The notes: generated from the sequence alone by a model not told the origin. A stretch of 64,000 nucleotides of DNA from Dehalococcoidia bacterium (GCA_965249215.1 CBDFLN010000002.1:186662-250661); one strand, 5' to 3'. Positions 15,799 through 37,198 are shown, numbered from the stretch's first letter. Numbers and translations: made by a program.

Positions 15799-16776
15799 CT
15801 AAAGCATCCGTGGTTGTCGGGTGATTTCCGGCCCTATCAGGCCAGCGTATGAAAGCCGCTTGCCAGCTGTTCCCCTGGCCATGCGGCCCATGATGGCCTC
15901 CGTGTCCAACGGGCGGCTGTTGTGACGGCCTGAGAACTCGGTTACGTAGCGCCCCAGGTGCTTGGCCGAGATATGGTGGTAGGTCCCGTTGATTCCCCGC
16001 TTGAGCAAGGCCCAAAAGGACTCTATCCCGTTGGTGGTCGCCTCATGCTTGACGTACTCCCCGGCGCTGTGCTGGACCGTCCAGTGGGAGCGGTGGGGCA
16101 TCCCTTCGTATGCCTTGGCTTCGTCGGTGTAGACCACGGCCCCAATCTCGGTAGTTTGCCGGACAAAACCCTGGAGGGCCTCTTTGTCGGTGAAGGCGAT
16201 GGGCCTAGCGGTGATTTGCCCGGTCTCCTGGTCGCGAGCTCCCACAACCGCGGCCTTGCCTACCGGCCCGCGGCCAGCGTTCAGTTTCTTGTCCTGGTGC
16301 TTGTTCCCTTCCTTCCCGCCGATGTAGGTCTCGTCGATCTCCACGGGGCCGGAGAATTGGTCGGGATTCTCTTTGAGGGTTTCCCGGATGCGGTGGGCCA
16401 AGTGCCAAGCCGTCTTTTGGGTAACGGCCAGGTCCCGGTGTAGCTTCATGCTCGATACGCCCTTCAGATGTGTAGAAAACAGGTAGAAGGCGATGGCCCA
16501 GGTTCCCAGGGGGAGCTTCGAACCTTGCATCAATGTGCCGGTCTTTATGGAGAAGTCCTTGCGGCAATCCTTGCACCGGAACGGCTGGGGCTTGCGGTTC
16601 TTGCGCTCTCTCACGCCATCCAGTCCGCCGCAGAAGGGGCAGCATATCCCGGAGGGCCAGCGGGTTTCCATGAACCACGCCTCAGCGTCGGCCTCGTTGG
16701 AGAATCGCTGGATGGCTTGGACTAGGGAGATACCCTTGCGAAAGGACTTGCCGGGGGCTGATTTAGTCATGGTCAC
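15799..16776 (-). CDS. IS1595-family (ISXO2-like) DDE transposase
   Basis: N-terminal zinc ribbon CPFCGG..CKDCRKDF, plus VEIDETYIGGK, VYTDEAKAY and NGIESFWALLKR motifs. 325 aa. Confidence 0.85.
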   Translation of the reverse strand: MTMTKSAPGKSFRKGISLVQAIQRFSNEADAEAWFMETRWPSGICCPFCGGLDGVRERKNRKPQPFRCKDCRKDFSIKTGTLMQGSKLPLGTWAIAFYLFSTHLKGVSSMKLHRDLAVTQKTAWHLAHRIRETLKENPDQFSGPVEIDETYIGGKEGNKHQDKKLNAGRGPVGKAAVVGARDQETGQITARPIAFTDKEALQGFVRQTTEIGAVVYTDEAKAYEGMPHRSHWTVQHSAGEYVKHEATTNGIESFWALLKRGINGTYHHISAKHLGRYVTEFSGRHNSRPLDTEAIMGRMARGTAGKRLSYAGLIGPEITRQPRML

Positions 16777-18150: not shown

Positions 18151-19563
18151 TTAAGGCCGGATAGAATCCGCCTCTTCCGCAGTGATGCCGTCGGTAAACC
18201 AGGACTGGACGACCGTCTGCCGCGCAAGCTCGATATCTTGGTGCGCCAGCTGTGGCAACGATTCAAGGGCTTTCGCCTCTTCCGCAGTGATGCCGTCGGT
18301 AAACCATGATAGCGCAATTACATGCCGGGCAAGCTCAACATCTATCGACGCAAGGTCTCCCGAGTAGTTAATCGCCAACCGTTCATCTTGGATGATGCCG
18401 TCGGCAAACCACGGAAGAGCTGCTGTCTTTGGCCCAAGCTCGGTATCTGCGGCCACGAGGTTTTCCAATCCACGAATAGCCTCCCCTTCCCCATAGGTCA
18501 TGTCGTCGGTAAACCACGGCAGGGCCGCTATCGTTCGTCCAAGCTGAATATCTGCAGTCGCGAGGACTCCTAATCTACGGATAGCCTCCCCTTCCCCATA
18601 GGTGATGCCGTCCGCAAACCACGACATACCAATCGTCTCGTGAGCAAGGTCAACGTCCTTTGACGCCAAATCGGCCAATCGATCGATGGCCCTGGACCCA
18701 TTCTCGGTGATGCCGTTAGTCGCCCACGAGAAATCTACTATGCGCCGCGCCAATTCAACGTCCGCCAGCGCAAGTTTGCCTAAGGCGCCAAAAGGAGGGA
18801 TCTCCGAAACTCCATCTTCCAACCAGAGACGCGTTACGGTCTTGGCAAGTTCGATGTCCGCTGATATTAGACCATGCTCATGCAAATCGGAGATAGCGAT
18901 TGAGGCTTTCGATAAGTGAAATAAACCGCCTATGAACCAAGAAAAGCCGGCGATCATTCTTGCCAGGTCCGCGTCCTTAGTGGCGAGGTTGTCCACTTCA
19001 ATAAGGACCTTGGCTTCCCAGTAGGTCAGTTCATCGGCGAGCCAGGAGACGCTCACCACGTCTTGGGCCAGCCCGCGGTCCGCTAATGCGAGCCCGTACA
19101 GGCTCTCGAGCACGAGCCGTTTGCCGTCAACCGTTACTGAAACGTAGCCAGCTTGGCTCTGGCCTAAGAGCCAAGGCTTTTTGACGATGGCGCTGCAAAG
19201 CTCGGCGTCAAACAGCCAAAGTTTCGTAAGCAAGTCGACGAAGTCGGCGTAGGCTTCGGGTGGGGCTTCCATAGTCCCCGCGTTGCATTCGGTGATGGGT
19301 TCCTGCACCGTTGCCGTGACGGTCGGCACAGGAATAGAAATGCTCACTGACCCAGGCGTAGCTGTAGGGGCTTCAGTGGCCTCCGAAGTTGGCTCGTTGA
19401 CGGTTTCCTGGACGACTGCCGTTGGGGGCGGCGTATCAATAACGGCGACAGTTGGCTCAGGGGTAGAAACGCTCCCTGGCCCCGGCGTAACGGTAGCCAC
19501 CAGGCCACAGCCAACCGCCGTCAAAAGCACCGTCACAGATGTTAGTACTACAAGTAGTCTCAT
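18151..19563 (-). CDS. repeat-containing lipoprotein, function unknown
   Basis: Signal peptide plus lipobox (LLTAVGC). About 10 tandem ~37-aa repeats centred on SWF(T/A)DGIT..E. The last two repeats are near-identical at DNA level (111-bp period, 18170 vs 18268). Lower GC. Confidence 0.6.
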   Translation of the reverse strand: MRLLVVLTSVTVLLTAVGCGLVATVTPGPGSVSTPEPTVAVIDTPPPTAVVQETVNEPTSEATEAPTATPGSVSISIPVPTVTATVQEPITECNAGTMEAPPEAYADFVDLLTKLWLFDAELCSAIVKKPWLLGQSQAGYVSVTVDGKRLVLESLYGLALADRGLAQDVVSVSWLADELTYWEAKVLIEVDNLATKDADLARMIAGFSWFIGGLFHLSKASIAISDLHEHGLISADIELAKTVTRLWLEDGVSEIPPFGALGKLALADVELARRIVDFSWATNGITENGSRAIDRLADLASKDVDLAHETIGMSWFADGITYGEGEAIRRLGVLATADIQLGRTIAALPWFTDDMTYGEGEAIRGLENLVAADTELGPKTAALPWFADGIIQDERLAINYSGDLASIDVELARHVIALSWFTDGITAEEAKALESLPQLAHQDIELARQTVVQSWFTDGITAEEADSIRP

Positions 19564-19800
19564 GATGCACGGAGGAGGAGGCCCGGCAATTATCGGGCAG
19601 AACACTTGCCGTGGCAAATCCGCTGTTTCGTGCCCACAATAGCGAAACGCGGCAAGCAAGCACTGACCATGTATAATGTCTTCCGGGAGCGTTCTCGAAC
19701 GTCGCTGAACCTCTGGTTAGACAACAACCCGCCAAGGAGGAGGACGCTGGTCTGTCCCAAATGGCGGATGACCCTTAACAGAATGGACATGCAGTGACCC

Positions 19801-20562
19801 GTGTACCGCTACTCGGTATGGATTCTCATAGTCTTGGTGCCGTTGGCTTTGGCTTGCGGCAGGATTCTTTTGACACCGGGGCCAACTACCGGTCCGACTG
19901 TTACCTCTGATCCCGGACCTACTTCAACCGCTACACCTGCTCCCACGCGCACGCCGTTGCCTCCTGATACAGCGGCGCCCACCGATGCGCCCCCTACGGT
20001 GGCTCCAATCCCAACCGTGTCGGCGACCCCCGTTCCAACTGGAACCCCCACGCCGACTGCCTCCCCCCCGCCGCCATCCTGGACCTTCGGCAGCTTATCG
20101 TGTTTCGCCCCGTCATGTTCTCAGGCTGAGACCCGTTATCCGTCCACGGTCTTGGCGGACCTCACCGTAGAAGCGACGTTTACCAACCCAAGGTATGCAA
20201 GCCAATTTCAGTACGGGTTTGTGATTCGTGACCGCATCAGAATCTGGGTTGCCAGTGATGGCGACTGGGAGGCCGTCGCCTGGGCAAGGGAAACGCGGAG
20301 TGACTCCCTTAACGTATTCTGGCGGGTGGCCTCTACCGCTGGGGGAAGTTTAGACGTTCCCTTTGACACCAGTCCGAGTGGCAAGAATCATGTTCGTGTA
20401 ACTGCCAAGGGGGAGCGAGTATGCTTGTTTGTCAACGGTGAAGCTGCTGCCTGCGTTGACCTGCCAGAGTTTACTATGGCTGGCGAAGTCAGCATTGCTT
20501 CGCAGTACGGACGCGTTCCCTATAGGGGCTTTAGGGTAGCAGCGTTTCAAGAGGCCGGCTAA
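19801..20562 (+). CDS. lipoprotein with Pro/Thr-rich linker and C-terminal beta-rich domain
   Basis: GTG start, lipobox LALAC, PT-rich linker. The C-terminal domain has a truncated paralogue at 23374-23920. Confidence 0.6.
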   Translation: MYRYSVWILIVLVPLALACGRILLTPGPTTGPTVTSDPGPTSTATPAPTRTPLPPDTAAPTDAPPTVAPIPTVSATPVPTGTPTPTASPPPPSWTFGSLSCFAPSCSQAETRYPSTVLADLTVEATFTNPRYASQFQYGFVIRDRIRIWVASDGDWEAVAWARETRSDSLNVFWRVASTAGGSLDVPFDTSPSGKNHVRVTAKGERVCLFVNGEAAACVDLPEFTMAGEVSIASQYGRVPYRGFRVAAFQEAG

Positions 20563-20646
20563 GCTATCCCGGAATTGTATATAATCCCTAACCACTAATG
20601 ATCGCCGTCCGTTCCCCTGAAACCCCTATACGAGGAGGTCCTGGTC

Positions 20647-21615
20647 ATGGTTGGAAGTTATAGCATCCTGGTGGGCACTACCGGCGCAAGCCTGTTCCGC
20701 AGTCCCGACGGCGGCGAGACCTGGGGACGCCTCGGCCCTCCCTTCCCCGGCGACTCCCAGGTCAGGGCCCTGGCAGTTGACTCCAGCAGGCCCAGCGTGG
20801 TCTACGCCGGCTCCAACTACGGCATCTTCCGCAGCAACGACGCCGGGGCAACTTGGCTGAAGCTGGACTCGCCCATGGACGGGCTGCATATCTGGTCCAT
20901 TGCAGTGGACCCGTCCGATTCCAACACCCTGTTCGCCGGAACCAGCCCGCCCTTCCTGTTTCGGTCCAAGGACGGCGGCGACACCTGGCAGAAGCTCCCC
21001 GCTGACATCGCCCAGGAGTGCGCCATCGGCTTGCCCCGGGTCACCGCCATGGCGGTTGACCCCGTGCACCCTGACACCGTCTATGCCGGAGTCGAGATCG
21101 ACGGGGTCCACCGCAGCCGGGACGGCGGCGACACCTGGGCCAGGTTAAATACCGGTATCACCAACCCCGACATCCACGGTATGGCTTTCAGCTTGGGACA
21201 GCGCGACACAGTTCTGGTAAGCACTCCCGCTGAGATTTTCGCCAGCAGCGACGACGGCGATTCCTTCCAGTCCCTCGCCCTCACCTCATCCTGGGCGCTG
21301 CCCTATTGCCGCTGGATTGCCGTGAAGCCGGACAACCCGCAGGTGGTCTTCGCCGCCAACGGCGACGGCGCCATCGGCAACACCGGGACCATTCAACGCT
21401 CCATCGACGGCGGCAGGACTTGGGAAACCCGGCCCCTGCCCGTCGAGCCCAACTCGCCCCTGTGGAATTTCGCCACCCATCCCGCCGACCCAAACCTGGT
21501 GCTGGCCAGCAGTATCTATGGCGAGCTATACCGCAGTACCGACGGGGGAGATTCCTGGGAGAAGCTGAAGAAAGAGTTTACCGAGGTCCGGGCCCTAGCC
21601 TGGCTGCCCAGCTAG
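20647..21615 (+). CDS. BNR/Asp-box repeat (beta-propeller) protein
   Basis: Six SxDxGx(T/S)W Asp-boxes: SPDGGETW, SNDAGATW, SKDGGDTW, SRDGGDTW, SIDGGRTW, STDGGDSW. Confidence 0.75.
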   Translation: MVGSYSILVGTTGASLFRSPDGGETWGRLGPPFPGDSQVRALAVDSSRPSVVYAGSNYGIFRSNDAGATWLKLDSPMDGLHIWSIAVDPSDSNTLFAGTSPPFLFRSKDGGDTWQKLPADIAQECAIGLPRVTAMAVDPVHPDTVYAGVEIDGVHRSRDGGDTWARLNTGITNPDIHGMAFSLGQRDTVLVSTPAEIFASSDDGDSFQSLALTSSWALPYCRWIAVKPDNPQVVFAANGDGAIGNTGTIQRSIDGGRTWETRPLPVEPNSPLWNFATHPADPNLVLASSIYGELYRSTDGGDSWEKLKKEFTEVRALAWLPS

Positions 21616-21745
21616 GCCGGCTAGGCCAGAATTAGCATACGCCCGCAGCTGCTGTACATCGCCGCCTGCGTCCCTGACCGCACCTCCGCGGCTGTGCCTG
21701 ACTGGGCCGCCGCCGCCCGGCCGGCTTGACACAGGCCCCGTTCCC
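21599..21745. repeat. diverged copy A of the zinc-ribbon gene 3-prime end
   Basis: Aligns with 24126-24270. The minus-strand translation ..CQAGR...SSCGRMLILA* compares with the intact ..CQACRM...SSCGRMLIPA*. Confidence 0.75.
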
Positions 21746-21836
21746 CAAGATATTGGAATGGTCTGATGACATACTCCCTATAAGTATGCAAGAATTTCTG
21801 GGGTAGGTTCGCTAATGCGGCTGATGGAGGAATCAG

Positions 21837-22079
21837 GTGGCAAGACCGGAGAGTAGGAGCAGCCCGTTGTTGTGGATCGGCGGAGCAATTCTCGTCGCAG
21901 CGGCTGTGGTCATCGGCGGTTTCTGGGTGTACGCGATCACGACGGCCGAGGACATGCCGACATTGCTCATGCTCGCGCTCATTGCCATACCGGTCGGGTT
22001 GGCCGTCTTGTTGACCGCGGTCATACGAGACAGAATCATTAACAAGAAGAAAGAGAACTTTCTGGAGGTTGACAATTGA
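21837..22079 (+). CDS. small membrane protein (two predicted TM helices)
   Basis: 80 aa with two hydrophobic stretches. Its stop overlaps the TTG start of the YbjQ gene (TTGA). Confidence 0.5.
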   Translation: MARPESRSSPLLWIGGAILVAAAVVIGGFWVYAITTAEDMPTLLMLALIAIPVGLAVLLTAVIRDRIINKKKENFLEVDN

Positions 22080-22390
22080 TCGTGACAACGACCGACGCCA
22101 TTCCGGGAGCTACGATCGCCGAAACGCTGGGGCTCGTGCGGGGCAGCACCGTGCGCGCCCGTCATATCGGACGGGATATCCTGGCTGGGCTCCGCAATAT
22201 CATCGGCGGCGAGGTCAACGAATACACCAAGCTCTTGGCGGAGGCCCGCGAAGAGTCGCTTCAGCGCATGATCGAGAACGCCGAGGGCATGGGCGCCAAT
22301 GCCATCGTCGGCACGAGGTTCATCACCGCGAGCGTGGCCCAGGGGGCGGCCGAAATCGTTGCTTACGGGACCGCCGTCAAGACGACCTAG
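22076..22390 (+). CDS. YbjQ family (UPF0145) protein
   Basis: MIVTTTDAIPG..IIGGEVNEYTKLLAEAREESLQRM..ANAIVG is characteristic of YbjQ/DUF74. Confidence 0.8.
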   Translation: MIVTTTDAIPGATIAETLGLVRGSTVRARHIGRDILAGLRNIIGGEVNEYTKLLAEAREESLQRMIENAEGMGANAIVGTRFITASVAQGAAEIVAYGTAVKTT

Positions 22391-22398
22391 TTCCCCTG

Positions 22399-22528
22399 CC
22401 CTGGCTGCCCAACCAGCCAGCCTAAGCCGGGATTAGCATACGCCCGCAGCTGCTGCACAGCACCGTCTGCGTCCCTGACCTCACCCGCTGCTGTATCTGG
22501 GTAGGCTGCGCCATCCGGCAGGCCTGGC
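22399..22528. repeat. copy B of the zinc-ribbon gene 3-prime end (130 bp)
   Basis: Near-identical to 24126-24255, with only a few mismatches by eye. Confidence 0.85.
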
Positions 22529-22549
22529 CAACCTTCGCTTGAGGCCACG

Positions 22550-22960
22550 TTATGGGACCTGCGCTAACGCCGACAAGAAGCGGGGTGCGTTGACGATGCT
22601 GGCGCCGAGGTATGTCCCTATGGGCAGCAGATGCCTGCGGTCACCGGTCACCAGGTAGTCGGCGGAAGCGGCCGCCGCGCACTCGAGAATGCGGTTGTCT
22701 GCATGGCTGCCCTCGATGACGTCTGCGAGGCGGGGAGGATCGATGACCAGGGCGGCCTTCTCAACGGCTCTTATCGCCGCGGCCGCACGGTCCTCCGCCC
22801 AGCCTAACTTGCGGCGCAACACTCCGGCCAGCTCCTCAAGTATGAACGGGGACAGCACCAATTGGAATCGTCCCCGCAAGCCCAACTCCAACGCCAAGCG
22901 TTCGTTGCCGGGAAAGTTCAGGCCGGAGACGATTACGTTAGTGTCGAAAACGACCCTCAC
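22550..22960 (-). CDS. PIN-domain toxin (type II TA system)
   Basis: MRVVFDTNVIVSG.. N-terminus and a ..YLVTGD.. acidic motif. 4-nt overlap with the upstream RHH gene. Confidence 0.75.
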   Translation of the reverse strand: MRVVFDTNVIVSGLNFPGNERLALELGLRGRFQLVLSPFILEELAGVLRRKLGWAEDRAAAAIRAVEKAALVIDPPRLADVIEGSHADNRILECAAAASADYLVTGDRRHLLPIGTYLGASIVNAPRFLSALAQVP

Positions 22961-23214
22961 GTATGATGATGCTCGGCATCGGCCCGGTACTCCTCGACAA
23001 GGCGGGCCACGTCCTCTGGGCCGATGCCCTGCCCCCTAGCTCGCTCCTCGCCGTATTGGAGCAGTTGTCGCCACTCGCACTCTTCGATGTAGCGTAGCGC
23101 CGCTTCTCGCAGGAATTCGCTTCTCGACTGGCCCAGCCGCCTCATGGCTTCGTCCACACGGTCCGCCATTTCCTCCGGAAGAGAGAAGGTGATCGTCTTG
23201 GTCGTTCGCGGCAT
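22957..23214 (-). CDS. ribbon-helix-helix (CopG-like) antitoxin
   Basis: TITFSLPEEMADRVDEAMRRLGQSRSEFLREAALRYI is a typical RHH. Confidence 0.75.
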   Translation of the reverse strand: MPRTTKTITFSLPEEMADRVDEAMRRLGQSRSEFLREAALRYIEECEWRQLLQYGEERARGQGIGPEDVARLVEEYRADAEHHHT

Positions 23215-23245
23215 GATTGCCTCGTTGTTACCGGGTCTTACTCAA

Positions 23246-23274
23246 ATTATGGCCGACAAGGGCTACAGTGTCAA
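23246..23274 (-). promoter_or_regulatory. putative promoter of the RHH/PIN operon
   Basis: The minus strand reads TTGACA-N17-CATAAT, about 30 nt upstream of ATG 23214. Confidence 0.4.
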
Positions 23275-23373
23275 CAGGATGTCTGGCCAACTTTAGACTC
23301 GGCAATGACGGAGAAGTTCACATAAGCGTCTCAGGATTCGGCGGGCTGTAGTCCAGAGGACTGCGAGGCCTGA

Positions 23374-24125
23374 CGAGGTTGTAGGTCTGCTAGTGCTGCT
23401 CGGTCCCCAACCCCGCCTTCCCCTCCGCCTCTACTTACCGGCGCCATATCGTGTTTTACCCCATCATGTTCCCAGGCTGAGGACCGCTATCCGTCCACAG
23501 TCTTGGCGAACCTCGCCGCTGAAGCCACGTTTACCAACCCAACTGATACAAGCCAGTTTGAGTACGGGTTTGTAATCCGTGAATGCGACGGGATTGACCG
23601 CATCGCAATTTTCGTTGCCAGTGACGGCGACTGGGAGGTCGTCGTCTGGGCGCGGACTGAATACCGTAATGGAAGCACTGTATACGAGGCCGCCTCTCAA
23701 GATTGGGGGAGTTTGGACGTTCCGCTTGATACCAGCGACCGGGGTGAGAATCATGTTCGAATTACTGCCATGGGGGAGCGAGTGTGCTTGTTTGTCAACG
23801 GTGAGGATGCTGCCTGCGTTGACCTGCCAGACTTTACTATGGCTGGCGAAGTCAGCATCTCTTCCGGGTACGGAAGCGTTTCCTATAGGGGCTTCAAGGT
23901 AACGGCGCTTGAAGAGGCCGACCAGGTGTTCCCGGAATTCTATATATCCCTTGCCGCTAGCGACAACCGGCCGTCCCCCCTGAAACCCTGCGAGGAGGCC
24001 CTGGTGACGACCGGAGCGTATGGCATCCCGGTGGGAACCACCGGCGCGAGCCTGTTCCGCAGTGCCGATGGGGGGATTCCTGGGAGAAGCTGAAGAAAGA
24101 GTTTACAGAGGTTCCGGGCCTCTGG
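23374..24125 (+). pseudogene. degenerate duplicate: 5-prime-truncated lipoprotein paralogue fused to a BNR gene with internal deletion
   Basis: Collinear with 20040-21615. It lacks the signal peptide, the lipoprotein stop is lost, the BNR ATG is changed to ACG, and the first and last Asp-boxes are joined (FRSADGG|DSWEKLKKEF). Confidence 0.75.
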
Positions 24126-24148
24126 CCTGGCTGCCCAACTAGGCCGGC

Positions 24149-24850
24149 CTAAGCCGGGATTAGCATACGCCCGCAGCTGCTGCACAGCACAGTCTGCGTC
24201 CCTGACCTCACCCGCTGCTGTATCTGGGTAGGCTGCGCCATCCGGCAGGCCTGGCACAGACCCCGTTCCACTTTCGCCACCGCCAACCCGCGCTTCGCCC
24301 GACGCAGGCCTTCGTAGCGCTGTACTGCCGAGGCATCCAGCGCGGCCACCAGGCCCTTTCGCCTTGCCGACGCCTCTTGTATCTCTGAGTTGCACCTTTT
24401 CGCCTCGGCCTGCAACTCCGCTTTCCGCGCCTTCCACGTTGCCAGACCGTCCGAAAGTTCCTGGGCCAGCGAGTCCACCCGCTGCTGCGACTCTTCCGCC
24501 TGCACCGACAGCTCCAACAGCTCCGAGTCCTGTTGCTCCAGCGACTGCCGGACGTTCTCAACCTCTTGCTGCAGGCTTTTCAGGTCCCTGGCGTTCGTGA
24601 CCTCGCCGCCGTACAGCTGCTGCTCCAGCCGGGTCGAACGCTCCCGCAGGGTTTCCACCTCCAACTGCCGCACCTTGTGTTCGCCCTGCACCTGGGGCAG
24701 CCGCTCCCTTTCTTCCTCTAACGACGTCTCCACCTGCCCCATCAACGGCCCGGAACTCAACTCCGCCTCTACCTTAGCCCGGGCCTTATGAATCCGGTCC
24801 AAGGCCAGGTCCATCTCCTGAAGCAAGTACAGTTGTTTTACCGTGGTCAT
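24149..24850 (-). CDS. coiled-coil protein with C-terminal C4 zinc ribbon (COG1579/DUF164-like)
   Basis: Long heptad-rich region, then CQACRM..(17)..CSSCGRML. Confidence 0.7.
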   Translation of the reverse strand: MTTVKQLYLLQEMDLALDRIHKARAKVEAELSSGPLMGQVETSLEEERERLPQVQGEHKVRQLEVETLRERSTRLEQQLYGGEVTNARDLKSLQQEVENVRQSLEQQDSELLELSVQAEESQQRVDSLAQELSDGLATWKARKAELQAEAKRCNSEIQEASARRKGLVAALDASAVQRYEGLRRAKRGLAVAKVERGLCQACRMAQPTQIQQRVRSGTQTVLCSSCGRMLIPA

Positions 24851-25096
24851 AAATCGACGCTCGCAACTCCCCTGTTTGGGCTTGGGCTTCCACCGCCGCC
24901 GCTCCCTTCCCCATCCTTATTCTACACTAAGGTCTGATTCTAGAAAGATGCACCTGCCTTGTCAACGCCACCGCACCCGGCGCCAGGCCACCCGCCTCTT
25001 CCGCATTTCCCCCGCCGTTGCCGCCTGCCTTCCCGGTTGGCGTTGCTCTGATGTATATTGGAGGGCCAGCAGGATCCCGCCTAACGGAGCCCGCTC

Positions 25097-26332
25097 GTGC
25101 GCATACTGCACTTTTCCGACCTGCACATTGGCGTCGAAAATTATGGCCGCACCGACCCTGAGACCGGTCTGTCCACCAGGCTGGGAGACTTCCTGGCCTC
25201 CCTCGACCAGGTGGTCGAGTTCGCCCTGGCGGAAAACGTGGACCTGGTGCTCCTCGCCGGCGATGCCTACAAGGGCCGGGACCCATCCCAGACCCAGCAG
25301 CGGGAATTCGCCAAGCGGTTGGCCCGCCTGTCCGAGGCCAACATCCCAACCTTCCTCCTGGTGGGCAACCACGATCTACCCAACGCCGTGGGCCGGGCCA
25401 CCGCCGTTGAAATCTTCCACACCCTGCGGGTGCCCAACGTCCACGTGGGCTCGTCCCTGCAGAACTACACCATTGCCACCCGGTCCGGGCCCCTGCAGAT
25501 ACTGGCTGTGCCCTGGCCCCGCCGCAGCGGCATGTTGAGCCGGGAGGACTCCCGCGGCAAGTCCATAGATGAAGTCCGCGAAGAAGTGGAAAGGCGGATG
25601 ACCTCCGCCATCTATTCCCGTGCCCAGGAGTTGGACCCACAAATGCCCGCCGTCATCGCCGCCCACCTCACCGTCAACGGCGCCACCGTGGGCACCGAAA
25701 GGTCCATGATGCTCGGCCAGGACCACGTGTTGATGGCCGGCGACCTGGTACGCCCCCAGGTCGACTACGTAGCTCTGGGCCACATCCACAAACACCAGGT
25801 GCTGCGCACGGAAGCCCCCATGATGGCCTATTCCGGTAGCCTCCAACGGGTGGACTTCAGCGAAGAGGGCGACGAGAAAGGCTTTTGTGTCGTCGACCTC
25901 GACCCTGCCGCACCACAGGGCCGGCGCTTGACCGGGTTCGACTTTCGTGCCTTGGAAGCCCGCCCCTTCGTCACCATCGAAACGACGTTGGTTTCCGGGG
26001 ACCCCGATCCCACCCGGTCGGTCCTGCGCGCCATCGCCAGAAAGGATGTTGCCAACGCAGTGGTGCGAGTGCGCGTAACCCTACCACCCGATTTGGAGCC
26101 GCACCTTCGGGAGGCCGACGTCCGCGAGGCCCTGGCCCCCGCCCACTACATCGCCTCCATCAACTTGGAATCTTCCGAGGAGACCCGCCGCACCCGCCTG
26201 GCAGCCGGTGAGGCCGAGGGCCTGCAACCCATGCAGGCCCTGCGCTTGTATCTGGACAGCAGGGACATCGACCCCAACCGGCGGGAGCGCATGATCCAGC
26301 TTGCCCAGGAGATCGTCGAGGAGGACGACTAG
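25097..26332 (+). CDS. sbcD: exonuclease SbcD / Mre11-family nuclease
   Basis: MRILHFSDLHIG, LLAGDAYK and LVGNHD metallophosphoesterase motifs. GTG start. Confidence 0.85.
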   Translation: MRILHFSDLHIGVENYGRTDPETGLSTRLGDFLASLDQVVEFALAENVDLVLLAGDAYKGRDPSQTQQREFAKRLARLSEANIPTFLLVGNHDLPNAVGRATAVEIFHTLRVPNVHVGSSLQNYTIATRSGPLQILAVPWPRRSGMLSREDSRGKSIDEVREEVERRMTSAIYSRAQELDPQMPAVIAAHLTVNGATVGTERSMMLGQDHVLMAGDLVRPQVDYVALGHIHKHQVLRTEAPMMAYSGSLQRVDFSEEGDEKGFCVVDLDPAAPQGRRLTGFDFRALEARPFVTIETTLVSGDPDPTRSVLRAIARKDVANAVVRVRVTLPPDLEPHLREADVREALAPAHYIASINLESSEETRRTRLAAGEAEGLQPMQALRLYLDSRDIDPNRRERMIQLAQEIVEEDD

Positions 26333-26456
26333 GCCCGGCCGCCCATCGCCTCCCGCGGGTTGACCCCTTTTACCCCAAGCGATACCCTGTCTGTGCTTCG
26401 CTCCCCGATGGGAGTGAGCCGTCCCCCGGGACTTTAGCCGGAGCCAGAGGATAAAC

Positions 26457-32544: not shown

Positions 32545-32770
32545 TGCTACTCCTGGAGCCAGGAATTTCTAGTTCGCCTCTCATTCCCGCTCATTCCCTC
32601 CCACCAGGGGGCGCGGGCAGGGTTTTTGTTTCTGTGTCATTTTGAGCCACGGAGCCGGGCGGTGATCGATGGGCCTTGGCAAGGCGGCAAGAGCGGCCAT
32701 CCACAGTGTATGGAAGGCCGCCGGACGGGGCAAGGGCTCGGTGTCAGGAGTTTGGGGCTTAAGGACAGGC

Positions 32771-33215
32771 GCCGGTGCGTGTGCTTCGAGAGCCTCAGCA
32801 CGAACGGGCTACCCAGTCTCCCGTTCACCCTGAGCCGGTTCGAAGGTCCCGCCGCCGGTGCGTGTGCTTCGAGAGCCTCAGCACGAACGGGCTACCCAGT
32901 CTCCCGTTCACCCTGAGCCGGTCGAAGGTCCCGCCGCCGGTGCGTGTGCTTCGAGAGCCTCAGCACGAACGGGCTACCCAGTCTCCCGTTCACCCTGAGC
33001 CGGTCAAAGGGCCCGCCGCCCGTTCGCCTGCTTCGAGAGCATCAGCACGAACGGGCTACCCAGTCTCCCGTTCACCCTGAGCGTGTCGAAGGGCCCGCCG
33101 CCCGTGCGTGTGCTTCGAGAGCCTCAGCACGAACGGGCTACCCAGTCTCCCGTTCACCCTGAGCCGGTCGAAGGGCCCGCCGCCCGTGCCTGTGCTTCGA
33201 GAGCCTCAGCGCGAA
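32771..33215. repeat. 82-83-bp tandem array (~5.4 copies) of REP/MITE-like family A
   Basis: Units start at 32771, 32854, 32936, 33018, 33100 and 33182. Each contains the hairpin GAACGGGCTACCCAGTCTCCCGTTC and the motif CACCCTGAGCCGGTCGAAGG. Confidence 0.9.
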
Positions 33216-33227
33216 GGGGGGTTGGAA

Positions 33228-33914: not shown

Positions 33915-34904
33915 CTATGCCGTTTCTATCAAAATTCTGCGATTTCTCAGGGGTATTTCTCTTCGGACGTCATCCGGCAGGCCGTCATAAGTCTCAAGCA
34001 GTTTGTCTACTAGGTCGTTAGGCCCCCACAAGCGAATCTGGAAGAAAGACCTTTCGTTCTCATTCCGGACCGCCTTTGTGAAATCGCCGAGGCTAACCAG
34101 CAAACCATGTTCGGCGCCGAATGACCCGATATTGCCCTGGAGGCGGTTGTAGTCGGGCAGATCTACGGCGCTGCGGCCAGATTTGACTTGAACGCATAGC
34201 CGCGGATCTCCAAAGCCCATATCACCCTGCCCAGCTAGGACGTCTACGCCGCCGTCCGGCCCAGGCCGAGTTTCCAATGCGCGGTAGCCTGACGCTCTCA
34301 GGATTTCGGCAACGAGGCACTCCATCCGGGTGCCTGAAAACCTGTCACGGATGCGATCTACGATTCGGTCATAAATTTGCTCTTCCAAGTCGACTTGGAA
34401 TTCAGTCTCTTCGTTGACGGGAGAGACAGTCTCTCCGTCGGTTGCTATATCTCCACTCAGATGTTTGCCTAATATGCCGTCGATACGTGCCTCGGCGTTA
34501 TTTGCCCGTACACGAAATACTGTTGCCAATCCACCCATGGAATTCAATAAATCCCGGTCGAAATAGGAGCGTGGAACATCTGGTGTCTTCCAGTCCACCG
34601 AACGCACGTGAGAGGCTTCCAACTCTTCCCGATACTGGTAATCGCCAGACGCCCTACCCACATTGACGACTCGCGGGCTCTTTCGAGGTAGCACAATCAT
34701 GTCGCCGACGCGAATTTCGTGGATGAAATTCCACACCTGGTCCGCCGAGTTCCTGGTCGGCATATGTTCTCGGAGCGACTCTCTACTGTTGAAACCGCCA
34801 GCGCTATACCCTACTCCAAAGTCTATGCCGGCTAGCCCTTGGGACAAAAATGTTTCCTCGTATTCGCCCATTCTCCCGGCTCTAACTACCCAGACAGTCA
34901 ACAT
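33915..34904 (-). CDS. Mrr-type (PD-(D/E)xK) restriction endonuclease with N-terminal extra domain
   Basis: C-terminal Mrr_cat-like GPDGGVDVLA..CVQVKSG. The N-terminus VWVVRAGRMGEYEETFL.. is typical of COG1715-like proteins. GGGAGGAGA lies directly upstream of ATG 34904. Lower GC. Confidence 0.7.
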   Translation of the reverse strand: MLTVWVVRAGRMGEYEETFLSQGLAGIDFGVGYSAGGFNSRESLREHMPTRNSADQVWNFIHEIRVGDMIVLPRKSPRVVNVGRASGDYQYREELEASHVRSVDWKTPDVPRSYFDRDLLNSMGGLATVFRVRANNAEARIDGILGKHLSGDIATDGETVSPVNEETEFQVDLEEQIYDRIVDRIRDRFSGTRMECLVAEILRASGYRALETRPGPDGGVDVLAGQGDMGFGDPRLCVQVKSGRSAVDLPDYNRLQGNIGSFGAEHGLLVSLGDFTKAVRNENERSFFQIRLWGPNDLVDKLLETYDGLPDDVRREIPLRNRRILIETA

Positions 34905-35027
34905 TCTCCTCCCGGTCGGCAGCAAAGCCTGCCAATTTCTCGACTTGATGATACCCCAACCGGGTTGCTACCCGTCCCATATCCGATAAACTCACTTGCA
35001 AGAACGAGCCTTCGGGCCCAACGGGCT

Positions 35028-35479: not shown

Positions 35480-37198
35480 CCCGAATCCACCGAAGGAGGG
35501 CGTCGGGTTAGCGTCCTGAAGCGGCAAGAAGGTGCTCCTGTGCTTCTGGGATAATGGTTTTGTAGCAAAAAACCGACCCCGGAAAAGGAGCACCCAATAG
35601 ATGCTGCCACGCAACCACCCCGACCGGATCCAAATCACCTTCGACGACCGCCGCTTGGTGGCCAATGCCGGGCTGCTCCTTCCGGCCACCCTGGCGCGGC
35701 ACCTCGGCCTGCCCGAACTCGTCCGGCAGCGCCTCGACCTGGGCGATGCCCCGGGGCGGGCGAACACGAGCGACAAGATGATGACGCTGGTGGCGTCTGC
35801 GCTGGCTGGGGGCGACTGCATTGACGACGCCGATGTGTTGCGCACCGGGGGGACGGCCTGCACCCTGGGCGGCACGGTCAAGGCGCCATCCACCCTGGGC
35901 ACCTTCCTGCGCAGCTTCCGGTGGGGCCACGTCCGTCAACTCGACCGGGTGAGCCGCGAGTTGCTGGCCCGGGCTTGGCAGGCCGGGGCGGGACCCGGCG
36001 ACGGGCCCCTGACCATTGACCTGGACTCCACCATCTGCGAGACCTACGGACTGGCCAAGGAGGGCGCACGCCACCACGGCTATACCGGCAAGCGGGGCTA
36101 TCACCCGCTGTTGGCCGTCGCCGCCGGCACCGGCGACGTGCTGATGTCCCGGCTGCGCGAGGGCCGCGCCAACACCGCCCGGGGCGCCGCCCACTTTCTG
36201 CGGGAGACGGTGGGGCGGGTACGCTACGCCGGGGCCAACGGACGACTCACGCTACGGGCCGACAGCGGGTTCTACACTCATGGCGTGGTATCCGTCTGCC
36301 GCAAGATGGATGTCCGCTTCTCCATCACCATCCGCCAGCACAAGAGCCTGCGCAATCTCATCGAGACGATACCCGAGGATGCCTGGACTCCCATTCCCTA
36401 CTGGATGGACGGCGCCGCCGATGTGGCCGAGACCACCTGCACTCCCTTCCAGAGTGAACCTGACGCCGCGCCGGTGCGGCTCATCGTCCGGCGTGTGAAG
36501 CCCACGCCCGGTTCCCAGTTGGCCCTCTTCGCCAAATACAGCTATCACGGCTTCATCACCGACCGGGACGGGGAGTTGCTCGAACTGGAGGCTGACCATC
36601 GCCGCCACGCCGAGATCGAGAATGCCATACGCGACCTCAAGTACGGCGTCGGGCTCAACCATCTCCCCTCGGGCCGCTTCGCCGCCAACGGCGCCTGGCT
36701 GGCCGTCCAGACGATGGCCCACAACCTGGCCCGCTGGACCGCGCGGATCGGTCTGGGAGAGCGGATAGCCACCACCAAGACCCTCCGGCGGCGGTTCTTC
36801 TCCCTGGCCGGACGGCTCACCCGCTCGGCACGCCGGTTGACCCTGCATCTTCCGGATCGCTGGCCTTGGGCTGAGAAGTTCAGCCGCGCCTTGGCCCGGC
36901 TGCGAGCCATTCCACTCCCGGCCTGACGGCACCGTCGGCGACCGACCCACCCACCGGACAACCGAAGATCCCCGCAGACTCGCGCCAGCCCGGTCCGAGA
37001 GAGTTCCCTGTTGCGTATTCTCTCGCCATCCCGCGCATCGCAGCTCCTGCAGACGGCCATAGGGGCCCCTGTGCGGCGATGAAGACCGTCCGCCGACCTC
37101 CCTACCCCAAATGGAACCCAGGCTATTTCCCCTGTAGCTCCCTCATCCCCCTTCCGCTTTCCTCACGCCGTCCATCGGTGTCCTTCGGTGGATTCGGG
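35480..37198 (+). mobile_element. IS1380-family insertion sequence (1719 bp)
   Basis: Perfect 18-bp terminal inverted repeats CCCGAATCCACCGAAGGA (35480-35497) and TCCTTCGGTGGATTCGGG (37181-37198). Flanking 5-bp direct repeat ATTAG (35475-35479 and 37199-37203). Confidence 0.9.
35601..36926 (+). CDS. IS1380-family DDE transposase
   Basis: 441 aa. N-terminus ..ITFDDRRLVANAGLLLPATLA.., plus IDLDSTICETYG, LRADSGFY and HAEIENAIRDLK. Confidence 0.85.
   Translation: MLPRNHPDRIQITFDDRRLVANAGLLLPATLARHLGLPELVRQRLDLGDAPGRANTSDKMMTLVASALAGGDCIDDADVLRTGGTACTLGGTVKAPSTLGTFLRSFRWGHVRQLDRVSRELLARAWQAGAGPGDGPLTIDLDSTICETYGLAKEGARHHGYTGKRGYHPLLAVAAGTGDVLMSRLREGRANTARGAAHFLRETVGRVRYAGANGRLTLRADSGFYTHGVVSVCRKMDVRFSITIRQHKSLRNLIETIPEDAWTPIPYWMDGAADVAETTCTPFQSEPDAAPVRLIVRRVKPTPGSQLALFAKYSYHGFITDRDGELLELEADHRRHAEIENAIRDLKYGVGLNHLPSGRFAANGAWLAVQTMAHNLARWTARIGLGERIATTKTLRRRFFSLAGRLTRSARRLTLHLPDRWPWAEKFSRALARLRAIPLPA

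Follow-up and report, generated by a model that had tools for sequence, protein, structure and literature searches.

Relic copies of a zinc-ribbon gene end at a recombination hotspot in a marine Dehalococcoidia bacterium

Introduction

How does one gene end come to stand three times in a row on a bacterial chromosome, with other genes lodged between the copies? The question is raised by a locus in a 64,000-nucleotide (nt) stretch of DNA from a Dehalococcoidia bacterium (GCA_965249215.1, CBDFLN010000002.1:186662-250661), here called the window, whose coordinates are used throughout unless another contig is named. The target is a gene for a COG1579-like coiled-coil and zinc-ribbon protein; its 3' end and downstream sequence occur in three copies (A, B and C) that bracket a YbjQ-family gene with a small membrane-protein gene on one side of B and a predicted toxin-antitoxin (TA) pair with pseudogenes on the other. 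An initial annotation read this as a possible trace of integrative elements that target a gene's 3' end and regenerate it. It is proposed here that A, B and C are probably the footprints of at least two rearrangements, and that homologous recombination between B and C is acting today. Relatives were found starting from the zinc-ribbon protein; their contigs are labelled L001-L030, and the species cluster to which the window itself belongs is called the window group.

Results

The genes and repeats of the locus are arranged as follows.

19801-20562, plus strand: lipoprotein gene, intact copy (open reading frame, ORF; no Pfam match; orthologues in L019-L024 at 69-83% amino-acid identity)
20647-21615, plus strand: BNR/Sortilin-Vps10-like gene (BNR gene), intact copy (Pfam Sortilin-Vps10, 9.4e-28, with PSII_BNR and BNR; orthologues in L019-L024 at about 88% identity)
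21595-21744, no strand assigned: copy A, read as an old displaced zinc-ribbon 3' end (about 40 codons, stop and downstream tail)
21726-21754, plus strand: promoter-like site spanning the junction of A with the cargo (10 of 12 consensus positions; consensus match only)
21837-22079, plus strand: small two-transmembrane-helix (2TM) protein gene, overlapping the YbjQ start by 4 nt
22076-22390, plus strand: YbjQ-family gene (Pfam YbjQ_1, 2.5e-38; 90-96% amino-acid identity in all relatives of the clade)
22393-22528, no strand assigned: copy B, read as a second displaced 3' end (107 nt coding, stop and about 30 nt downstream)
22550-22960, minus strand: predicted PIN-domain toxin gene (Pfam PIN_3, 6.7e-17)
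22957-23214, minus strand: predicted ribbon-helix-helix (RHH) antitoxin gene (Pfam RHH_1, 8e-12), overlapping the PIN gene by 4 nt
23274-23246, minus strand: promoter-like site of the RHH/PIN pair (11 of 12 consensus positions)
23215-23403, no strand assigned: spacer x (about 190 nt), from the TA pair to the lipoprotein pseudogene; 23215-23344 is common to L008 and L030
23404-23946, plus strand: pseudogene copy of the lipoprotein C-terminus, without the signal peptide and most of the linker
23991-24142, plus strand: pseudogene copy of the BNR gene, with an internal 830-nt deletion whose joint lies at 24070-24074
24119-24255, no strand assigned: copy C, the functional zinc-ribbon 3' end and 30 nt downstream
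24146-24160, minus strand: 15-mer ATCCCGGCTTAGGCC (last codons, stop and 3 nt), also in B (22419-22433) and diverged in A (21618-21632)
24149-24850, minus strand: target gene, COG1579/CT398-like coiled-coil and C4 zinc-ribbon protein (Pfam CT398_CC, 2.4e-10; Zn_ribbon_9, 1.2e-09)

Self-comparison of the window recovered the three same-orientation copies that had been described, at positions differing from the initial ones by no more than 4-7 nt, and Pfam matches support the gene identities assigned at that stage (zinc-ribbon, YbjQ, PIN and RHH). B and C are 95.6% identical over 137 nt and 98% identical over a 113-nt core. A is more diverged, at 83.8% to C over 228 nt with the BNR tail 21521-21592 included (range 81-86%) and 78.7% to B. 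A 25-mer from the repeat core matches the window three times at up to 3 mismatches, always at this locus, against an expectation of 0 (100 shuffles). The target ORF itself is intact and keeps both CxxC motifs; CT398_CC covers residues 10-185 of the protein and Zn_ribbon_9 residues 199-230, which is the architecture of a hairpin with a C-terminal C4 ribbon, and 578 homologues were found at E<=1e-30. Copy B is non-functional, since the first zinc-ribbon Cys codon is lost at its right boundary. That inner boundary (24244-24255 / 22517-22528) lies at the first CxxC motif, right after the 8-nt palindrome CAGGCCTG, which contains AGGCCT and CCTGG; to call it a local break hotspot would be pure speculation. 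The corresponding boundary of A sits 14 nt further into the zinc-ribbon gene.

Copy A proved to be the end of a larger unit of about 1.66 kb, made up of the lipoprotein C-terminus, the BNR gene and the zinc-ribbon end, which is present twice (20088-21744 and 23439-24269, about 77-84% identity) and whose left end is the C-terminal domain of the intact lipoprotein (from about 20045). The decayed gene duplicate noticed earlier between B and C is real and belongs to this unit (20088-20725 against 23439-24084, 76.7%, E 2e-139). The left copy of the unit is intact except for its truncated zinc-ribbon piece, and the right copy, from which the 5' end of the lipoprotein gene and 830 nt of BNR sequence are missing (20715-21544, between the first and last Asp-box repeats), is dead except for its zinc-ribbon end; the same 830-nt deletion is found in L008. 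The tail of the BNR pseudogene adjoins C just as the intact BNR gene, convergent with A at a separation of 5 nt, adjoins A. The locus thus holds two direct copies of a multi-gene segment, one of them decaying, as a segmental duplication would leave it. The two copies do not meet at one new joint but are separated by about 1.7 kb (21745-23438), comprising 2TM-YbjQ, B, PIN-RHH and spacer x.

The arrangement of the window is reproduced in six independent long-read contigs (L009-L014) from strains 94-98% identical and at least four samples, and Logan contigs from other runs span 21552-22449 and 22499-24104 with no mismatch. It is therefore not an assembly artefact. Empty alleles also exist. In both L006 and L015 precisely one repeat and the whole B-C interval are gone; in L006 the sequence corresponding to 20871-22528 is joined to that of 24124-26379 through a single 132-nt repeat. 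The sample that yielded the empty L015 also yields the occupied L010 and L014, and the zinc-ribbon protein of L015 is the same as that of L011-L014. In sample ERZ25071132 the empty allele makes up roughly a few per cent, a figure that is a rough reading of the coverage labels in contig names and no measurement.

The flanks of the empty alleles tie them closely to occupied ones: the left flank of L015 differs from that of the occupied L009 by 0.00% over 1.5 kb, and that of L006 from the occupied L010 by 0.53%. Their right flanks group differently from their left flanks, and this incongruence indicates that the empty alleles are not a separate clade. The single repeat of L015 carries left markers of the B type and a right marker otherwise exclusive to the C copies of L013 and L014, which puts the crossover in this single case between repeat positions 73 and 124; the stop-codon core occupies positions 28-42. 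Comparison of the window with L009 shows that B and C have exchanged a synonymous A/C site, and across strains of this species B and C are 96-100% identical. The chimeric repeat and the swapped site are the marks that crossover and gene conversion between these two copies leave, and the chimeric repeat together with the incongruent flanks points to homologous recombination between B and C that adds or removes the segment today. A pattern suggesting gene conversion is also seen in the left half of A, which varies between strains.

Within the interval, the reading frame of the lipoprotein pseudogene is broken in L010 and L013. Among strains otherwise 98-100% identical, the most variable stretch is the spacer 23215-23438 (92-95% against L009 and L013); no source was found for the spacer part 23278-23403.

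Lineages whose zinc-ribbon proteins are 79-86% identical conserve both flanks, with the BNR, 2TM and YbjQ genes to one side and the zinc-ribbon gene and a metallophosphoesterase gene to the other, and differ in what lies between YbjQ and the zinc-ribbon end. The interval is empty in L006 and L015. It holds a xanthine/uracil-type permease in L019-L021; a PPC-domain protein, permease and membrane protein in L022 and L024; a permease and membrane protein in L001; a GmrSD system (PADLOC HEC-06) in L002; a PDC-S26/PDDEXK_4 gene in L007; and the TA pair with pseudogenes in the window group, L008 and L030. Because this interval differs between related lineages, the zinc-ribbon gene end is a genuine hotspot, and a gene-end recombination hotspot is supported. 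Where the zinc-ribbon protein is only 51-70% identical, the far side is wholly different; a scan of metagenome contigs returned distant relatives only.

The same comparison changes the standing of the two modules. The 2TM-YbjQ pair, first described as accessory, is kept in every lineage of the clade and is a fixed part of the genome. Of the empty loci that the initial annotation had looked to, a single-repeat site exists for B-C (L006, L015), and no relative with an empty site was found for A-B. It had also been argued that relatives carrying the YbjQ and TA genes here without flanking repeats would speak for simple tandem duplication rather than integration; the clade comes close to that picture, as several lineages have 2TM-YbjQ at the locus with no flanking repeats. 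In L001 the TA pair stands away from the zinc-ribbon end, on the far side of the block adjoining an oxidoreductase gene, with no B/C repeats and only a fragment of A beside it.

Relatives also bear on the age of the relics. Copy A, together with its right junction to the 2TM promoter region, is common to the window and L001, and in L019-L022 a different sequence occupies the position of the A-to-2TM spacer. A BNR-tail relic adjoins the zinc-ribbon end in L001, L019, L021 and L008. In L030, which overlaps L008, a decayed B comes after the start of a permease gene and a BNR-tail relic; it is 77-80% identical to the C of that lineage and is joined to PIN via the same 21-nt spacer as in the window. 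As the B-PIN junction is common to L030, where B has diverged from C, relic B is old. That B and C are nearly identical in the window's species must then be the outcome of concerted evolution, or of repeated loss and regain that renews the copies, and does not show that they arose recently. In L002 a remnant of B lies beside YbjQ, and the leftmost 30 nt of B in the window resemble it (0 of 500 shuffles); L002 is the only other lineage in which short repeat remnants were found beside YbjQ.

The lipoprotein pseudogene tells a similar story. Its synonymous divergence (dS) from the intact copy is 0.45, compared with 0.52 for the L024 orthologue and 0.25-0.28 between the window and L019, and in a tree it branches outside the group of the window and L019. 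Its ratio of nonsynonymous to synonymous divergence (dN/dS) is 0.45, against 0.30 for the orthologues, which suggests that this copy was functional for part of its history. The PIN gene is 95.6% identical at the DNA level to that of L030 and 80% identical to that of L001. Over the TA operon (22529-23344) the window is 95-97% identical to L008 and L030, and over the flanking B, BNR pseudogene and zinc-ribbon body it is 76-81% identical; judged from these sequence identities, a recent lateral exchange of the TA pair alone is suggested.

By its layout the PIN/RHH pair is a type II toxin-antitoxin pair, with predicted toxicity and neutralisation: the antitoxin gene precedes and overlaps the toxin gene, and the pair has a promoter-like site of its own. 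At the other module, the promoter-like site upstream of 2TM-YbjQ has its -35 element, TTGACA, inside relic A, where the functional copy reads CTGGCA, and its -10 element on the cargo side. Relic A may thus have been co-opted as the promoter of the 2TM-YbjQ operon, a putative role that follows from the consensus match.

Two relatives carry inserts of another kind at the stop codon of the zinc-ribbon gene, which lies on the plus strand in both contigs.

L007, 772-2621: islet at the zinc-ribbon stop codon, cargo PDC-S26/PDDEXK_4
L002, 10690-13051: islet at the zinc-ribbon stop codon, cargo GmrSD (HEC-06)

The L007 insert measures 1,824 nt by comparison with the 97-99% identical L022 and L023, which represent its empty site, and is flanked by an exact 13-nt repeat made of the last codons, the stop and 2 nt. 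The L002 insert, of 2,332 nt, lies at the same position between exact 15-nt repeats. In both cases these 13-15-bp repeats regenerate the gene end. The two inserts share a non-coding distal arm of about 280 nt (74.6% identity, E 2e-42), and neither encodes a recombinase. The 15-mer ATCCCGGCTTAGGCC of the window is the equivalent of their flanking repeats. The modules of the window lack this arm.

Recombinases were sought by running Pfam on the genes of the locus and on most ORFs of at least 120 amino acids in window positions 1-49 kb, and in the gene tables of about 20 related loci. The earlier remark that no integrase is present was borne out over this range: no tyrosine or serine recombinase was found in window 1-49 kb, the genes at about 26.4-29.3 kb being judged by recombinase-free Pfam labels in the tables of related loci. 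Three genes are the sole mobility or defence functions found in that part of the window, two of them DDE transposases.

15799-16776: IS1595-family transposase
35601-36926: DDE_Tnp_1_4 transposase
33915-34925: solitary Mrr-type restriction endonuclease

Several other kinds of element were considered for the repeat and set aside. An integron cassette with an attC site is rejected: no IntI was found in window 1-49 kb, and the repeat has no significant fold, its folding being no better than that of shuffled sequence (z -0.02 to -0.64). A structured RNA of a known family is likewise rejected, with neither window 21400-24400 nor the L007 islet matching Rfam at E<=1, and a tRNA or tmRNA target is rejected because the window has none. 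A dispersed repeat or miniature inverted-repeat transposable element does not fit, as each of the two GTDB relatives with the core has it in a single copy and the window has it at a single locus. No match was found to an attP site on a phage, plasmid or viral contig. An event mediated by an insertion sequence is discounted: the nearest transposase, IS1595, is 5 kb off, and no terminal inverted repeats are seen with either the 137-bp or the 13-15-bp repeats. GC content shows no clear step and is not deviant at the modules.

Further out, a repeat-rich lipoprotein gene by the locus (window 18151-19659; L002 13939-15834; L019 13725-14846) varies strongly between lineages in length and repeat number, and is missing from L001 and L022. 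At 32770-33219 a GC-rich unit of 82 nt is repeated in tandem 5.5 times (94% match); palindromic elements that it resembles occur in the arm of the L007 islet and between the BNR and 2TM genes of L019-L022. In the long-read contigs L012, L014 and L019, the metallophosphoesterase gene that neighbours the zinc-ribbon gene is broken into two or three ORFs, through either pseudogenisation or the indel errors of low-coverage assemblies.

Discussion

The history that we favour would run as follows. In each event, DNA would have been inserted between the body of the zinc-ribbon gene and its old end, at the last 107-120 nt; the inserted DNA would have brought a replacement end and a copy of the BNR gene, which lies next downstream, and the old end would have remained as a relic. 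The first event, an old one, would have left relic A beside the intact lipoprotein and BNR genes and placed 2TM-YbjQ between A and the gene, a permease also being brought in in most lineages. The second event, also old, would have left relic B and placed PIN-RHH and a second lipoprotein-BNR copy, now pseudogenes, beside the gene. Both events would share a unit-cargo-unit topology in which the unit is host chromosomal sequence. Such a topology points to segmental duplication or, equally, to Campbell-type homologous insertion of a relative's chromosomal fragment carrying the cargo; a self-contained element with an attP site is unlikely, because adjacent host genes amounting to 1.6 kb would have no place in it.

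At present, gene conversion would keep B and C 96-100% identical, and the 137-bp direct repeats would delete the 1.6-kb interval or let it be regained, so that occupied and empty alleles coexist in one population. Since the interval contains only a TA pair with its own promoter-like site and dead genes, we infer that addiction (post-segregational killing) by the putative TA pair keeps it in most strains.

Homologous or segmental recombination is preferred over classical integration on account of the length of the repeats (137 to about 1660 bp), the gene conversion and the chimeric repeat of L015. Measured against what an integrase-borne island would show, the locus does have direct repeats derived from the end of an intact target gene, and close relatives do have a single-repeat empty site for B-C; no recombinase was found in window 1-49 kb, and there is no foreign DNA, since B-C contains copies of the adjacent lipoprotein and BNR genes diverged by about 20% and A-B is conserved throughout the clade. 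Classical integrase-borne islands are not supported in this window. The initial proposal of integration at a gene 3' end therefore stands in part: the hotspot, the empty B-C site and the stop-codon islets of L002 and L007 agree with it, and the missing recombinase, the long repeats and the neighbouring-gene copies do not.

Some observations weigh against the reading that we prefer. Inside the zinc-ribbon gene, A and B end at points that correspond to 24269 and 24255, just 14 nt apart, a spacing expected of a fixed recombination site and not of random illegitimate joints. The precise stop-codon inserts of L002 and L007 indicate that some site-specific process acts on this gene end in the clade. 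The empty alleles, moreover, come from a contig labelled 2x (L015) and from a short-read scaffold (L006).

The strongest competing explanation, unlikely in our judgement though with appreciable weight, is site-specific integration in trans. An unlinked tyrosine or serine recombinase would act on a core at the zinc-ribbon stop codon, and integrase-less islets would accrete like cis-mobilisable elements (CIMEs): A, B and C would be attL, an internal attachment (att) site and attR, and the 2TM-YbjQ and TA modules would be decayed or cis-mobilisable elements that had integrated successively into the copy nearest the gene. Three same-orientation gene-end copies bracketing two modules, the same 15-mer inside A, B and C, the single-copy empty site and the close spacing of the A and B inner boundaries would all follow from such a process, and the exact 13- and 15-nt repeats, shared arm of about 280 nt and defence genes of the L007 and L002 inserts show what its clean products might look like. 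Yet the clean cases have repeats of 13-15 bp and those of the window measure 137-150 bp or longer; the window modules are without the L002/L007 arm; and a B-C element would need, as its attP, 1.8 kb copied from the lipoprotein-BNR-zinc-ribbon-end region of the host itself. In L015 the crossover, at repeat positions 73-124, lies away from the core at 28-42. No recombinase was found in window 1-49 kb or the roughly 20 related loci, no viral, plasmid or phage counterpart was found, and GC content does not deviate.

There are precedents for this explanation. The closest described system is that of the ssrA-specific islands of Dehalococcoides, tandem modules downstream of the tmRNA gene, each bounded by a 20-bp repeat of the gene's 3' end (McMurdie et al. 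2011, PMC3146451). Such islands amount to about 12 kb of foreign cargo. In sixteen of 31, a module with a serine recombinase (DsiB) adjoins attL, and those without an integration module, about half, were proposed to be cis-mobilisable (PMC3146451). Our locus resembles them in belonging to the same bacterial class and in having tandem modules at a single-copy gene, direct gene-end repeats and a strain-variable region; it differs in its protein-coding target, its repeats of 137-150 bp or longer, the absence of a detected recombinase, and one module that consists of copies of neighbouring genes. The accretion model for CIMEs (reviewed in PMC5704250) is matched in that, at the 3' end of a protein gene, three att-like repeats enclose two modules that have no integrase, the gene-nearest copy keeping the gene intact. 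That model requires a resident or incoming element with a matching integrase, of which none was seen in window 1-49 kb, and its att sites are short cores with arms, whereas the window repeats are kilobase-scale copies of the host flank.

A second alternative, improbable by a good way, is that one or more plain tandem duplications of a larger block were followed by differential deletion, with no insertion at all; for example, a block reaching from inside the zinc-ribbon end to just past PIN could have been duplicated, making B-PIN the novel joint, after which recombination between relics would have removed genes. The unit-cargo-unit topology with one decaying copy is compatible with this, as are the loss of the lipoprotein pseudogene's 5' end, which fits a duplication boundary, and the TA pair of L001, which stands at the far side of the block by the oxidoreductase gene as in a single undivided block; deletion between repeats is demonstrably active. 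Several additional precise deletions would nevertheless be required. The 95-97% identity of the TA DNA to the L008/L030 lineage, against about 80% in the flanks, suggests lateral movement rather than vertical decay, and the pseudogene's dN/dS of only 0.45 seems to reflect a history largely under constraint, like that of a functional gene in another genome. Being integrase-independent too, this alternative overlaps with the recombination that we favour.

An origin of the repeats in faulty assembly or in chance similarity is effectively refuted: short-read unitigs do break at the repeats, and L016 stops within the BNR pseudogene, about 50 nt before C, but the six long-read contigs, the exactly spanning Logan contigs and a chance expectation of 0 leave it practically no room.

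The preferred reading, homologous or segmental recombination, has its own parallel in Campbell-type integration and segmental duplication, with which the locus shares the unit-cargo-unit arrangement, the decay of one unit, gene conversion, and a RecA-type crossover that yields a precise empty allele with a chimeric repeat. Campbell-type integration is known chiefly from laboratory suicide-vector integration and amplifications, and the window presents a natural, long-lived structure. TA pairs that stabilise deletable segments are known from superintegron cassettes and from sgiAT of SGI1 (cited in PMC5704250). The likeness lies in a type II TA pair with its own promoter within a direct-repeat-flanked segment that has otherwise no evident selective value; unlike superintegron cassettes, the window has no integron, integrase or attC, and stabilisation is putative here. 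Lastly, the locus is akin to defence islets at chromosomal hotspots, as the same two core genes flank GmrSD, PDC-S26, a TA pair or nothing in related genomes, with the difference that the window carries the TA pair only and the islets with 13-15-bp repeats belong to L002 and L007.

Taken together, the window is best explained as one more case of something already described: a hotspot at a gene end, bearing relic repeats, whose present behaviour is due to host homologous recombination. Something newer is a doubtful prospect, and would take one of two forms: a family of small (1.7-2.3 kb) integrase-less islets in marine Dehalococcoidia that use the stop codon of a COG1579-like gene as attachment site and are moved in trans by an unlinked recombinase, or a TA cassette that carries its own copy of the target locus, enters by homologous recombination and resists loss by addiction.

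As a case of a gene-end recombination hotspot the locus is tidy but fairly ordinary. What it offers is a well-resolved natural example from an uncultured marine lineage, in which relic gene ends would accumulate, gene conversion would homogenise them, and recombination would switch a small segment on and off within a population. The conserved stop codon of the zinc-ribbon gene is, in addition, a spot where relatives gather small defence genes (GmrSD, PDC-S26) between clean 13-15-bp repeats with no integrase. If a recombinase acting in trans were found, the ssrA-island model of Dehalococcoides would come to include a protein-coding target and far smaller elements; if none were found, the locus would illustrate how a TA pair can persist and spread through host recombination alone.

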